The translations under genes and the position numbers were made by a program. From Candidatus Magasanikiibacteriota bacterium (GTDB lineage: Bacteria > Patescibacteriota > Patescibacteriia > Magasanikbacterales > UBA922), in NCBI GenBank assembly GCA_021648085.1, contig JAKITS010000001.1, positions 388,948-452,947 on the forward strand: a DNA stretch of 64,000 bases, given 5' to 3'. Shown here one piece after another: positions 52,991 through 60,658 of this stretch. The first letter of the stretch is position 1. Every line of letters starts with the position of its first letter. Below the pieces are notes generated by a model. That model ran no database searches, was not told the DNA's origin, and saw only the letters and a program-made list of their open reading frames with translations.

Positions 52991-53302
52991 TTACTTCCTT
53001 ACTCTCACACCTCTTAAACCTAGAATTAACAAAATTAAAATTACAATTTTTAAAGTATAATTTCCATATATATTTATAAAATCTCTAGTCATTGGAGTTA
53101 TACTTCCAACTATCAAGTGTATGAGGATACTAATTGGCAAGGTTAAAAATAGCCAATTTCTTTTTGGCACGCGGATTTTAATTTTTTGAAACAACCTAGT
53201 CAGCCGTGGAGAAATCAAATAAATTCCCCCAAAAGCCACTACAAAATCAAAAATGGCATATCCACCGAGTCTAAATTGTCTGAGGAATTCTAATATTTCC
53301 AT
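52991..53302 (-). CDS. Small membrane protein (three TM); its 5' end is duplicated twice elsewhere in the island
   Basis: MEILEFLRQFRLGGYAIFDFVVAFGG... Truncated copies of the first 26 codons lie at 55953 and 58262. Confidence 0.5.
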   Translation of the reverse strand: MEILEFLRQFRLGGYAIFDFVVAFGGIYLISPRLTRLFQKIKIRVPKRNWLFLTLPISILIHLIVGSITPMTRDFINIYGNYTLKIVILILLILGLRGVRVRK

Positions 53303-53329
53303 ATTTATTTATTATTTGTAAAAAATTTA

Positions 53330-53896
53330 TCAACGCCTTTTTTTCTTTTTTTTAAATTTTGTTTCAGGATACCTAATAACAGTAGAAAAAGTATTGGATG
53401 TTTCGTCTATATCTTCTATCCTTGAAAACAGATCTAAGACAATATCTTCAGTTATGTCTTCTTTTAAACGAATAATTAATGCGTGATCAATACCAAGCTC
53501 ACGATAAATTTCTTCCATTTTTGCAATTTTTTTCTGTTTATTTTTTACAACAGTATGCTTACCTGTAGTAACATCAACTGAAAAACTTTTTCCTTTATAT
53601 TTAAAAAGTATATCTATTCCAAGCATACGATCTAGTAAAACATCCTTAGACAAATCCTCCAAACTAACCCCTTCTTCTTGCAATTTCTGTATTACAAGAT
53701 CGTAGCGTTGAGGTAGTTTTTTATTAACTTGATCCAAAATTTCCTGTTTACCCTCTTTTAAAGAGAGAATTTCCACCCCTAAATCTTTGGCAATCTCAAG
53801 AAGTTGTCGCATTCTTTTTTCCGCAAGCTCTGACACTTTACTAAGAAAGTTGGGGGTTATTTCTCTATAATTATGCGATTGCTCTCTCATAAACAA
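53330..53896 (-). CDS. Hypothetical protein (island cargo)
   Basis: 188 aa, K-rich C-terminal tail, no recognisable domain. Confidence 0.45.
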   Translation of the reverse strand: MFMREQSHNYREITPNFLSKVSELAEKRMRQLLEIAKDLGVEILSLKEGKQEILDQVNKKLPQRYDLVIQKLQEEGVSLEDLSKDVLLDRMLGIDILFKYKGKSFSVDVTTGKHTVVKNKQKKIAKMEEIYRELGIDHALIIRLKEDITEDIVLDLFSRIEDIDETSNTFSTVIRYPETKFKKKKKRR

Positions 53897-53975
53897 TTTT
53901 AAACTTATTTATATTTTATTTAATTCTACCATATTTCACCAAAGAATTTTTTACTATTTCCTTAATTTTAACAAA

Positions 53976-54350
53976 TCACATAAAAATTATATAATTTTTA
54001 ACTGGTTTTTGAACAATTTTAATATTTATATTATTTTCTTTACAATATAAAGATAAAAACCATTTTAATAAAGGTTTATCTCTTCTACTAGAATTACAAC
54101 TTCCACAACATATTGCAACAGTTTTTGAATCATTCCAAGGAGGAAGATGGTTTAAATGTTTTATTGTTGCCCAATCACCACGAAAAATACCATGAACAGG
54201 TAATTCCATTTTTTTATAACAATATACACAAGTTTTATCTCTTACTCTAATTTTATCTAATTCATCTTCTAAAATATTATATTTATTTGGCACAATATAA
54301 AAAATTAAACAGAAACATATTTTATAGGATATTGCATTCCCTGTCCCCAA
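53976..54350 (-). CDS. HNH-type nuclease-like small protein (start uncertain; possible GTG at 54293)
   Basis: CVYCYKK ... ATIKHLNHLPPWNDSKTVAICCGSCNSSRRDKP fits the Cys-x2-Cys ... H-N-H ... Cys-x2-Cys layout. Confidence 0.5.
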   Translation of the reverse strand: MGTGNAISYKICFCLIFYIVPNKYNILEDELDKIRVRDKTCVYCYKKMELPVHGIFRGDWATIKHLNHLPPWNDSKTVAICCGSCNSSRRDKPLLKWFLSLYCKENNINIKIVQKPVKNYIIFM

Positions 54351-58061: not shown

Positions 58062-58163
58062 AAATTTATTTTTATAATAAAACTAAAAAATATATATTAT
58101 TTAATTATTTTTATAAAAATTTAAACATTAAAAAATTAACAAACTTTTCTTTCATTCTTTATT

Positions 58164-58262
58164 TTACCATATTTCACTAAAGAATCCCCCAAAAGCCACC
58201 ACAAAGCCAAATATAATATATTCGCAAAATCTAAATTGTCGAAGGAATTCTATAATTTCCAT
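58164..58262 (-). pseudogene. Duplicated 5' fragment of the small membrane-protein gene fused to an rmlBD 3'-end motif copy (junction scar 1)
   Basis: MEIIEFLRQFRFCEYIIFGFVVAFGG is followed by GATTCTTTAGTGAAATATGG. Confidence 0.55.
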
Positions 58263-58263
58263 T

Positions 58264-58833
58264 TTATTTTTTAATTGATTTGAGATATTTATTATTTATT
58301 TTTTCTTTATCTTCTGTAGATAAGTTTTTTATATATTCTAAAAAAGAACCTCCAATATGAAGAATATCTTTTGCAACAATAAGTAATTCTCTATTTAAAA
58401 TAGATATACCATTAATAACAAACTGGCTACCTAAAATAAATCTATAATCAGTATCCTTTCTAATATGAATAAATTCTCCACTATGTGTAGTCAATATTTT
58501 AATAAACTCTAAGTTAGAATAACGTTTTTTATTTAATATAATATTTTTTTGATGTAAAAATTTTGTTAAAGATATTTTATTTTTAAAATAAGGTGATTCG
58601 TCAAAATTAAAAAGTTTTATTAATACAGGAAGAATATCTTCATGATCCTTTCCTTTACAAACTAAAGTTCGTAATTCATTAGCCATAGATATAAAAAAAG
58701 CAGAATGAGTGGAATAATTTTCAACTGAAGTTTTCAATAAAAATAAATGATTGTCAAGATCTTTTAATAATTTATTTAGTGATTTTTGAACTCTCATGTT
58801 TAACAATTTTTTACTTATATTTAACCCTCCCAT
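58264..58833 (-). CDS. Hypothetical protein (island cargo); its start overlaps the last codons of the rmlBD fusion
   Basis: 189 aa, with no domain recognised. Confidence 0.45.
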   Translation of the reverse strand: MGGLNISKKLLNMRVQKSLNKLLKDLDNHLFLLKTSVENYSTHSAFFISMANELRTLVCKGKDHEDILPVLIKLFNFDESPYFKNKISLTKFLHQKNIILNKKRYSNLEFIKILTTHSGEFIHIRKDTDYRFILGSQFVINGISILNRELLIVAKDILHIGGSFLEYIKNLSTEDKEKINNKYLKSIKK

Positions 58834-60658
58834 ATTTCACCAAAGAATCCCTCAATGCTTCCTTCGCTGGGCGCATTCTAATTCCATATTTTTCCAAATT
58901 TTTGGATTGTAAGAAATTGTTGGATCTTCCTTTTTTGGCGAGGCCTTGTTCTACCAATTGGTCATTTGTTATCCATTCATTTGTGTGTGTTGGGTCTACC
59001 AGCTCCTCGTACATTGAGATAATTTCGCGGTGGCGAATTGTTCCGGGATTTGTGACGTGGAATATTCCTTCTGCTTTTTTGGTTAGAAGTTGATAAAACA
59101 CATCTATCATATCATCCACTATTGTCACGCTATTTTCCACATCTATCACTTTTTCAAAACTCGCCAATTTGTCTATTAGATTCCAGTGAGCCGGTTTTGA
59201 GCCAAGTGGCATTCTAATTCTAGCAATCCCAACATTTGGCAAGGTAGAAAGCACCAAGTCTGCAGCCCATTTTGCTCTAGAATAAGTTGGTTTTGGATTT
59301 CCAAAGTCATCTTCAGTCCAACCAGCTAAATCTGGGGATTCACCATAATATATGCAACCAGAACCAACATGAAGCATGTAAACTCCGCGTTCTTGACAAG
59401 CCTCTGCAATCATAATCGGCAATTTTACATTTCCAACTATCGTGGTTAGCTGATTGTCATCGCACCAATCTACATTTGGCTTTCCACGAACTCCGGCAGT
59501 ATTCAAAACTGCTGTTGGTTGATACTTGTCCAAAAGCTCCAAAACATCTTCTTTTGAATTTATTCTTTTGTTGCTCAAAACCGCATCGTCCCAACTTTGT
59601 GCACACTCAGTTCCCATTGCACCCGCACCAATTATTAGGATATTCTTTTTCTCACTACCAAAACTTTCCATTTTTTTGTAATTTCTATAGTTTCCATTTT
59701 TTATATTTTCTAACCAACCTCTATTTTCTTTGTACCAGTTTATAGTCTCGCGAATTCCCTCTTCAAAAGAAATCAACGGCTCCCAACCCAACTTTCTTAT
59801 TTTTGTTGTGTCCATTAGATATCTCTTATCATGCCCAAGTCTGTCTGCTACATAAGTTTTCAAACTTTGTGGTTTTCCCAAAGTTTCCAAAATCAAATCT
59901 GTAATATCCTCCACACTCTTCTCCACTCCAGTTCCTAAGTTATATGCCTCTCCTGCTTTTCCTTTTAGCAAAATACATTCAATTCCTCGGTTGTGGTCGT
60001 CTACATGAATCCACTCACGCCTGTTTTGACTACTCTTGAACAATGGCAAACTTTTGTCTTCCAAAGCATTCATTGTAAAAAGTGGAATCAACTTTTCTGG
60101 AAATTGATAATGTCCATAATTGTTGGAACAATGACTAATAGAAACCGGCAACCCAAAGGTATTTGCATAAGACATCACCACATGGTTTGTACAAGCCTTG
60201 GAAGCATTGTAAGGAGTCTTGGGTGCATATGCATCACCTTCTTTGAAAGATCTGTCCTCGTCCAATTCTAGGTCTCCAAAAACCTCGCAAGTAGAAACAT
60301 GGTGAAATCTTTTTACACCTTCATTTCTAGCAGATTCTAATAAAATTTGAGTTCCAATCACATTTGTTCTTAGGAAAATCCCAGGATCTTTTACTGCGTT
60401 ATCATTGTGCGATTCTGCTGCAAAATTTACCACATAATCCACACCTTTCATTGCTTCTTTCAATTTTTCTGCATCACCAATACAGCCTTGCACAAAAGTA
60501 TAATTTGGATTGTTTTCCACATCTTTTAAATTTTCCAAATTCCCCGCATAAGTTAGCAAATCATAGTTTACCACTTTGTCGTGCCGATATTTTTTTAGCC
60601 AGTAGCGAATAAAATTTGATCCTATAAAACCAGCCCCTCCGGTTACAAGTAATTTCAT
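58811..60658 (-). CDS. Fused dTDP-glucose 4,6-dehydratase (RmlB-like, N-terminal) and dTDP-4-dehydrorhamnose reductase (RmlD-like, C-terminal)
   Basis: The N-terminus has LVTGGAGFIGSNF, YDLLTYAGN and the catalytic YxxxK. A second Rossmann GxxGxxG begins at ILIIGAGAMGTE. The total is 615 aa. Confidence 0.85.
   Translation of the reverse strand: MKLLVTGGAGFIGSNFIRYWLKKYRHDKVVNYDLLTYAGNLENLKDVENNPNYTFVQGCIGDAEKLKEAMKGVDYVVNFAAESHNDNAVKDPGIFLRTNVIGTQILLESARNEGVKRFHHVSTCEVFGDLELDEDRSFKEGDAYAPKTPYNASKACTNHVVMSYANTFGLPVSISHCSNNYGHYQFPEKLIPLFTMNALEDKSLPLFKSSQNRREWIHVDDHNRGIECILLKGKAGEAYNLGTGVEKSVEDITDLILETLGKPQSLKTYVADRLGHDKRYLMDTTKIRKLGWEPLISFEEGIRETINWYKENRGWLENIKNGNYRNYKKMESFGSEKKNILIIGAGAMGTECAQSWDDAVLSNKRINSKEDVLELLDKYQPTAVLNTAGVRGKPNVDWCDDNQLTTIVGNVKLPIMIAEACQERGVYMLHVGSGCIYYGESPDLAGWTEDDFGNPKPTYSRAKWAADLVLSTLPNVGIARIRMPLGSKPAHWNLIDKLASFEKVIDVENSVTIVDDMIDVFYQLLTKKAEGIFHVTNPGTIRHREIISMYEELVDPTHTNEWITNDQLVEQGLAKKGRSNNFLQSKNLEKYGIRMRPAKEALRDSLVKYGRVKYK

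Follow-up and report, generated by a model that had tools for sequence, protein, structure and literature searches.

A groundwater bacterium of the Candidatus Magasanikbacteria (Candidate Phyla Radiation, CPR/Patescibacteria), known from a metagenome-assembled genome (MAG) of ~1 Mb, harbors a gap filled with cargo in a cell-envelope sugar cluster, between two of its conserved genes. We analyzed a window of 64 kb out of a contig of 984,181 bp. Upstream, the gap is bordered by rmlBD, a fusion of the genes for a dTDP-glucose 4,6-dehydratase and a RmlD-like reductase, and downstream by a gene encoding a small membrane protein of 103 aa. Between both genes lies an island of open reading frames (ORFs), among them a predicted restriction-modification (RM) system, and truncated copies of the two flanking genes are found within it (Table 1). 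The minus strand holds every gene from 49.9 to 64 kb, and every island gene is co-oriented with the flanks. The GC content of the island is 20-27% compared to 37-41% in rmlBD. The rmlBD product matches the Pfam families GDP_Man_Dehyd (1.7e-70), Epimerase (4.6e-68) and RmlD_sub_bind (2.5e-26), and homologues of the membrane protein, for which Pfam gave no match, number 300 across Patescibacteria. In the following, A designates the 3' tail of rmlBD and B the 5' head of the membrane-protein gene, and primes mark their scar copies. The joints of B' with A', of B'' with A'' and of the HNH stop codon with A''' are named J1, J2 and J3, respectively.

Table 1. Features of the island and its flanks, in order of transcription (positions refer to the window)
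Feature	Position	Strand	Remarks
rmlBD fusion (dTDP-glucose 4,6-dehydratase + RmlD-like reductase)	58811-60658	-	upstream conserved flank
Cargo 1 (c1), 189-aa ORFan as annotated, L3J07_02270	58264-58833	-	alternative ATG at 58797
B', truncated membrane-gene head	58185-58262	-	codons 1-26, 78 nt; nhmmer E 1.2e-21
A', rmlBD tail copy	58126-58188	-	core 19/20; nhmmer E 8e-10
Cargo 2 (c2), predicted type II RM system	55975-58061	-	C5 methyltransferase + NgoFVII-like endonuclease
C5 cytosine methyltransferase (c2)	57105-58061	-	PF00145 2.1e-95; TIGR00675 5.7e-103; PADLOC MTase_II 4.6e-126
NgoFVII-like endonuclease (c2)	55975-57102	-	PADLOC REase_II 8e-91 over full length; PF20731 NgoFVII C-terminal domain 2.2e-12
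B'', truncated membrane-gene head	55824-55953	-	~130 nt; nhmmer E 2.8e-23
A'', rmlBD tail copy	55759-55823	-	KEVLRDSLVKCDRIKE...; core 17/20; nhmmer E 1.5e-12
ORF219 (cargo 3a, c3a, gene 1), 219 aa	55095-55754	-	large uncharacterised family
PD-T4-3-type GIY-YIG nuclease (c3a, gene 2)	54305-55025	-	86-aa ORF (55025->54765) + 148-aa ORF (54751->54305)
Small HNH-type nuclease (c3a, gene 3), ~105 aa	53976-54293	-	GTG start; weak profile matches
A''', rmlBD tail copy	53911-53965	-	KEIVKNSLVKYGRIK*; core 19/20; nhmmer E 4.3e-9
ORF188 (cargo 3b, c3b), 186-188 aa, L3J07_02235	53330-53896	-	N-terminal HeH/SAP-like helix, PD-(D/E)xK-like predicted fold
B, intact 103-aa membrane-protein gene, L3J07_02230	52991-53302	-	downstream conserved flank

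Copies of both flanking genes partition the island

The A motif GATTCTTTGGTGAAATATGG matches four times on the minus strand, at 58849-58830 (no mismatch), 58186-58167 (one), 55807-55788 (three) and 53948-53929 (one), and has no further match in the 64 kb. Shuffled sequences lead to an expectation of 0.04 matches, and none of 100 shuffles reached four. Similarly, the first 20 nt of B have three matches (53302, 55953 and 58262) against 0.04 expected. A nhmmer profile scan of the whole window recovered the three B heads (E 5e-24 to 1e-21) and the four A tails (3e-15 to 4e-9), and the next-best matches follow at E >= 0.5 with a clear gap to the background. These E-values are inflated, as the profiles were built including the same copies, but the gap to the noise is nonetheless real. 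A preliminary description of this DNA had reported that the last codons of rmlBD and the head of the membrane-protein gene recur in the island, and both recurrences hold, with four and three copies, respectively, that are unique to the locus within the window. The length of ~80 nt given there for the head copies agrees with the 78 nt of B', but B'' extends over ~130 nt including a 7-nt deletion. A further candidate scar, ATGGGAATTATTAGAATT (55045-55066, between ORF219 and the PD-T4-3 gene), which resembles the start of the membrane-protein gene, does not rise above the noise (nhmmer E 62, p ~0.03-0.04) and was rejected.

Ordinary dispersed repeats, which the preliminary description had named as the alternative source of the copies, were rejected as well. 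Since the dispersed family of the window, which resembles repetitive extragenic palindromes or miniature inverted-repeat transposable elements (REP/MITE-like), has a different sequence and the profile gap is real, the A and B copies are not members of such a family. The REP/MITE-like family itself has the core GTCATCCTGAGCGGAACGAAGTGGAGTCGAA with an inverted partner and is found at positions 3085, 16024, 19688, 21767, 23313, 28477, 32731, 48712 and 60787, with partner arms at 3204, 19808, 21873, 23391 and 32818. One copy (60787-60826) is located just upstream of rmlBD.

The copies are arranged in the order A-c1-B'A'-c2-B''A''-c3a-A'''-c3b-B, which is a head-to-tail stack of A-cargo-B modules. 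Of the three cargo blocks previously described, A''' splits the third into two modules, c3a and c3b. The resident A comprises the last ~55 nt of rmlBD with the core at 58830-58849. A' begins with GGGATTC, is 61 nt long and spans a C-terminal extension, the stop codon, a TTAATTTTTT spacer and (A)ATG. This extension is of the type found in L001, one of the loci from sampled relatives that we labeled L001, L091-L097 and L081-L090. The local alignment of A' with the L001 tail has p 0.002, and A' is not a tail of the resident type. B' is 80% identical to B over 86 nt and ends at its 3' side with GGGGA, which it has in common with A'. It differs from B by nine synonymous and seven non-synonymous exchanges, and the latter affect conserved residues, including the conserved GGYAIFD stretch. 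B'' is 87% identical to B over 79 nt and has 23 intact codons, followed by the deletion and then by divergent sequence. Overall, the scar copies are ~77-87% identical.

The three joints do not lie at a common position. B' ends at nt 78 and B'' at ~nt 130 of the membrane-protein gene, and the HNH stop codon directly adjoins A''' without any B copy between them. On the other side, A' starts at the core and A'' and A''' ~17-19 nt upstream of it. J1 sits on the microhomology GGGGA(A)TT, which is present in the membrane-gene head as well as in the rmlBD tail and can be read directly from the DNA. J2 sits on an AAAGA-like patch occurring in both genes, with parental sequences inferred from the resident copies, and J3, for which the parental sequences are inferred likewise, is without a B remnant. 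As judged from the sequence, the joints are therefore heterogeneous and associated with microhomology.

The tail copies share one more feature. The motif TGnTAnAAT, which is similar to an extended -10 element, is present at the same position in A', A'' and A''' (58169, 55790 and 53931, minus strand). The tail of the lineage with an empty site (see below) has TGGTAATAT at this position, and the resident A and the L081 tail do not have the motif. TGnTAnAAT occurs 22 times on the minus strand of the window, and a scan for sigma-70-like promoters found as many sites in the island as in shuffled sequence, i.e., no enrichment. The motif in the A copies might serve as promoter for the respective next gene. 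Furthermore, the resident A (58785-58829) and A''' (53880-53928) also agree after the end of the rmlBD reading frame (AAAATTGTT...ATGAGAG), as far as the start codon that follows, which is included. This codon belongs to ORF177 in the first case and to ORF188 in the second, and the two proteins are unrelated. The significance of this likeness is marginal, with p 0.001-0.04 depending on the segment compared.

The site in related genomes

The adjacency of rmlBD and the membrane-protein gene is found in only two other sampled lineages. One of them, L001 and L091-L097, contains the empty site that the preliminary description had proposed to look for, consisting of the rmlBD stop codon, 6 nt and the ATG of the membrane-protein gene. 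Its rmlBD product is 88% and its membrane protein 79% identical to that of the window. The other lineage, L081-L090, has an allele of 2.7 kb composed of a frameshifted orphan gene, a C5 methyltransferase gene and a gene for an unrelated 338-aa protein. This methyltransferase is only 44% identical to that of the window, the RM system at the site is a different one, and rmlBD of L081/L084 is 90% identical to the resident one. Three states of the site are therefore known, an empty one with a 6-nt spacer, one with 2.7 kb of an orphan gene and a different RM system, and the stack of 5.5 kb in the window. The order rmlBD followed by the membrane-protein gene is kept in all of them, and the outer synteny is kept as well (genes for a CDP-OH transferase, a 768-aa protein, HIT and rmlBD; AftA_N and GT2 genes). 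Since the outer flanks are syntenic and the content varies between the relatives, the site is a true polymorphic hotspot. As had been described before, the variable island of cargo and defense genes occupies exactly the space between the two flanking genes.

Outside of these lineages the arrangement disappears. At rmlBD genes with an identity of <=73%, a convincing repeat of the tail is absent and the membrane-protein gene is missing within 10 kb, and distant homologues of the membrane-protein gene are located after rubrerythrin or HIT genes. Scans with rmlBD of GTDB genomes and Joint Genome Institute (JGI) metagenomes detected nothing closer than the two lineages found via the membrane protein. 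Among 59 loci with a complete rmlBD, no convincing repeat of the gene's own 3' tail was found downstream of it, and the two weak matches have E 0.007. An exact look-up of the membrane protein, the endonuclease and ORF219 gave no record. The DSLVKYG tail is confined to a narrow clade, and therefore the donors of the cargo would be close relatives.

In the L081-L090 lineage, the sequence that separates the orphan gene from the methyltransferase gene (L081 1325-1402, L084 717-794) is colinear with the B head of the same lineage, at a score of 17 (p 0.0015 compared to shuffles and 0.004 compared to other windows). This spacer may be a heavily decayed B scar of an older two-module stack, and stacking may then have occurred more than once in the clade.

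Origin of the scars and growth of the stack

The origin of the scars can be read from B''. Over its 23 codons it differs from B by nine synonymous and no non-synonymous exchanges (14.7 synonymous and 54.3 non-synonymous sites; proportion of synonymous differences, pS, 0.61), for which the neutral probability is ~9e-7. Because the differences are synonymous only, B'' was a functional gene of another genome during its divergence, and its codon pattern thus demonstrates a foreign origin. The pattern of B' fits a foreign origin that was followed by decay. Taken together with the identity of the copies, this indicates that the scars are imported orthologous flanks and not duplicated targets.

In our view it is probable that the locus is an integrase-free acquisition hotspot that has grown by homology-anchored and illegitimate recombination. 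For each cargo block, a different related genome would have donated a segment of this very locus, with part of the donor's rmlBD tail at its left and, usually, part of the donor's membrane-gene head at its right. The normal outcome would be a double homologous recombination in both flanks, by which the resident cargo is swapped. At least three times, however, homology would have joined one end only, and the other end would have been joined illegitimately at a microhomology of B head and A tail, a process that can be described as homology-facilitated illegitimate recombination (HFIR) or, equivalently, as one-ended break repair. The new module would thereby be added beside the old one, and the displaced bits of the flanks would be left as the scars B'A', B''A'' and A'''. 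With an anchor in rmlBD, the resident tail and cargo would be pushed downstream, and with an anchor in the membrane-protein gene, the resident head would be pushed upstream; either route leads to the observed stack.

Both halves of this reading have counterparts in other bacteria. Integrase-less hotspots diversify by homologous recombination in the flanking core genes (Oliveira et al., 2017, PMC5635113), and core defense hotspots have been described in Pseudomonas (PMC10250203). Similar to these, two core genes bracket variable content including RM or defense genes, the relatives have empty and differently filled alleles between the same flank genes, and the region is free of integrase, transposase and prophage genes; the turnover in such hotspots is ascribed to homologous recombination in the flanks, as proposed here. 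Different from them, additions without replacement are recorded here as truncated copies of both flanking genes, and the host belongs to the CPR and has a genome of ~1 Mb. For orphan-module arrays in type VI secretion system (T6SS) and Rhs loci, HFIR has been put forward as the origin (Kirchberger et al., 2017, PMC5361080; Jackson et al., 2009, as cited in PMC5361080). Such arrays are formed by C-terminal displacement in Rhs, contact-dependent inhibition (CDI) and T6SS effector-immunity loci. In these arrays, too, serial modules each stand behind a diverged 3' end fragment of the upstream gene, the earlier modules are moved along and retained, an integrase plays no part, and a homologous anchor with an illegitimate end is proposed. 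The island shares with them the 3' copies of the upstream gene before the modules, the joints at microhomologies in variable positions and the foreign flanks. However, its cargo consists of nucleases and defense genes and not of toxin tips with immunity genes, the enzyme encoded by its upstream gene acts on sugar nucleotides and does not end in a variable domain, and fragments of the downstream flank are kept as well.

RM systems without mobility genes are also known between long direct repeats (PMC2853133, from 2010). Like these insertions, the island has an endonuclease and methyltransferase pair without any other mobility gene, direct repeats of >30 bp (here B'A' and B''A'') that match a single-copy site in the empty genome, and a GC content below that of the host. 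In contrast to them, the repeats are composite and permuted, with the downstream head preceding the upstream tail, they differ in extent and are ~77-87% identical, and modules other than the RM system carry the same scars. Since the repeats are permuted, unequal in extent and of this identity, the scars are not a duplicated target, and the model of long target duplication was rejected.

Several points weigh against the growth of the stack by one-sided recombination. The searches described above did not reveal a donor genome in which one of these cargos forms a lone A-cargo-B module, the nearest sampled relatives are just 88-90% identical in rmlBD and 79% in the membrane protein, and the stack is known from a MAG contig assembly. 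The newest module could adjoin rmlBD or the membrane-protein gene, and the data do not decide the direction of growth, although the stronger decay of B' compared to B'' weakly favors growth at the side of the membrane-protein gene. In addition, the three A-side joints all lie within ~20 nt of the same 20-nt core, a clustering that random illegitimate joining does not predict. It could reflect a specific site or selection, e.g., for keeping the promoter-like TGnTAnAAT.

A different origin of the array would be an in situ tandem duplication of A-cargo-B by unequal exchange at microhomologies, after which the cargo was replaced by homologous recombination and the scars drifted. The head-to-tail array of one unit type is in agreement with this, and the B'/A' joint at GGGGA/TT is the trace that would be expected. 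However, a scar drifting in place would not show nine synonymous and no non-synonymous differences as B'' does, A' is of the L001 tail type and not of the resident type, and the varying joint positions demand a separate duplication event for each unit. As soon as foreign flanks are allowed to come in together with the cargo, the explanation converges on one-sided recombination between genomes, and as a distinct process we regard tandem duplication as unlikely.

The clustering of the A-side joints keeps alive a site-specific alternative, in which a recombinase encoded elsewhere uses the 20-nt core of the rmlBD tail as attachment (att) site and circular cassettes insert serially, each leaving a copy of the core. 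Four core copies with 17-20 of 20 positions do stand at four cargo boundaries, the empty site holds one copy, and the inspection for recombinases covered 64 kb of the 984 kb contig. The core, however, is conserved DSLVKYG coding sequence of a functional rmlBD in the clade, the A copies do not reach equally far to the left (0, ~-19 and ~-19 nt), and the RM allele of L081, which is derived from a single lineage, has no second core copy. Moreover, B' and B'' just upstream of the core and the order of B before A are unexplained by such insertions, so that an illegitimate B/A joint is still required. The preliminary description had viewed the island as the product of site-specific insertions that recur at a single attachment site and regenerate a hybrid site each time. 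Several separate acquisitions at one hotspot remain of this view, but not the att site. Campbell integration gives A-B'...A'-B and the observed order is A-cargo-B'A'-cargo-...-B, and because B' precedes A', the reverse of the expected order, a duplication of att type is disfavored. The different offsets at which the A copies start, the divergence of the copies and the microhomology at J1 speak against it as well.

Neither the island nor the window provided a cognate recombinase as expected for tandem integrative elements. Scans with Pfam, PADLOC, NCBIfam and PHROG detected no integrase or transposase family among the island ORFs, and a CPR tyrosine integrase used as query in tblastn and phmmer had no match in the window. 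That the region is not a classical transposon or prophage and that the window contains no visible integrase, as stated in the preliminary description, is in line with these scans. Altogether, we consider site-specific accretion rather improbable. In tandem SCC elements (staphylococcal cassette chromosome) at rlmH (orfX) and in islands at the 3' ends of tRNA genes, Ccr or tyrosine recombinases and uniform core repeats are needed. The island resembles them in that every boundary of the tandem cargo carries another copy of the final codons of a conserved gene; it differs by the lack of a detected recombinase, by the varying joints and by the downstream-gene heads upstream of the core. An integron cassette array was rejected, as there is no IntI and attC-type folding is not above that of shuffled sequence (z -0.5 to -1.6 for the single-strand folds of the joints). 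A phage vehicle was rejected, too: a degenerate A core gave 33 single matches in IMG/VR, none of which extends past the pattern and which are attributed to chance, the B-head pattern gave none in IMG/VR, and queries with the ORF188 family and the endonuclease found no viral relatives.

Finally, an assembler might have concatenated the alternative alleles of co-existing strains, for which the MAG source and the polymorphism of the locus among relatives could be quoted, but this is very unlikely, because the scars are short, truncated at microhomologies and 13-23% divergent, their internal 7-nt deletion and substitutions of conserved residues mark them as pseudogene remnants unlike the full flanks of a strain, and an assembler does not make such novel joints without supporting reads.

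Beyond its growth, the stack may be thought of as a set of A-cargo-B units that act as integron-like defense cassettes independent of a recombinase and run on host homologous recombination alone. RecA-dependent exchange between two A or two B copies would excise a circle of one module with a B/A joint, and this circle, or the module in linear form after uptake by a relative, would re-insert through one homologous crossover at the locus of rmlBD and the membrane-protein gene in whichever member of the clade. The rmlBD-tail copies with TGnTAnAAT would then be the promoter of each cassette. We consider this idea rather improbable.

Many defense islands lie between core genes without mobility genes, and the gain of new systems without losing old ones in such islands is mostly inferred statistically. 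Here the locus keeps the joints themselves, and the foreign flank scars together with the empty and alternative alleles permit a reconstruction of each acquisition. The phenomenon is thus known in kind, both as integrase-free hotspot and as accretion by one-sided recombination, and it is unusually legible here due to the scars of both flanks, in a host phylum where such mechanisms are little documented. In CPR/Patescibacteria genomes of ~1 Mb, defense repertoires are small and new genes are assumed to be gained by way of DNA uptake. Genes for competence and pili, i.e., for DNA uptake, are common in Patescibacteria (PMC12455944), and uptake may also have delivered the modules. The scar signature, a downstream-gene head fused to an upstream-gene tail, can be searched genome-wide and could measure the growth of hotspots by one-sided recombination.

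Cargo genes and neighboring variable regions

The gene identities assigned earlier (rmlBD, C5 methyltransferase, endonuclease, GIY-YIG and HNH) are supported by Pfam, PADLOC and PHROG profiles. The locus can be described as a nuclease and defense island with up to five nuclease-type genes if the putative nuclease ORF188 is counted, and the only recognized defense families in it are the RM system and PD-T4-3. Since its C5 methyltransferase gene adjoins an endonuclease gene of the cognate type, cargo 2 is predicted to be a type II RM system.

The orphan ORFs, for which a comparison with defense profiles had been suggested, have no match in PADLOC, and searches for their function in NCBIfam and by sequence in the PDB were negative, too. 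The ORFan of cargo 1 is without a Pfam match as well and has one homologue in 5.8 billion clusters, which originates from a Peregrinibacteria MAG. ORF219, in contrast, belongs to a family of 2150 representative clusters at E <= 1e-3 for which no Pfam model exists, and some members have a C-terminal DUF7669 or extra N-terminal domains. Its single-sequence structure model is unusable, with a predicted local distance difference test (pLDDT) value of 35.

The protein formerly described as GIY-YIG protein has this fold and is, more precisely, a homologue of the single-gene anti-phage defense PD-T4-3 that is split into two ORFs. The PADLOC profile PDLC04031 covers both of them (8e-18 for profile positions 1-70 and 5.1e-25 for 101-253, of 256), and PF22945 matches with 3.4e-09. 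The gene is split by an extra A in an A8 run (54814-54821, minus strand), and deletion of one A restores a single ORF. The additional A may stem from a sequencing error, reflect a phase-variable tract or mark a pseudogene. The HNH gene has weak matches to HNH endonuclease families of PHROG (2.4e-4 to 8e-3) and to PtuB of PADLOC (6.6e-4). The part in mobility that the preliminary description had considered for the GIY-YIG and HNH proteins, as homing-endonuclease folds, is conjectural.

A second variable spot is located just downstream of the membrane-protein gene (52950-52990). In the window it is a 41-nt spacer before a cupin gene, in L081 (3713-4307) it contains a FdtA-like gene, and in L091 (2502-4942) a reverse-strand gene for a 201-aa protein, a FdtA fragment and a gene for a Bro-N protein. 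Far from the island, at 10400-11238 of the window, at least seven units of 63-84% identity are repeated in tandem at periods of 117 and 102 nt, apparently within a coding region.

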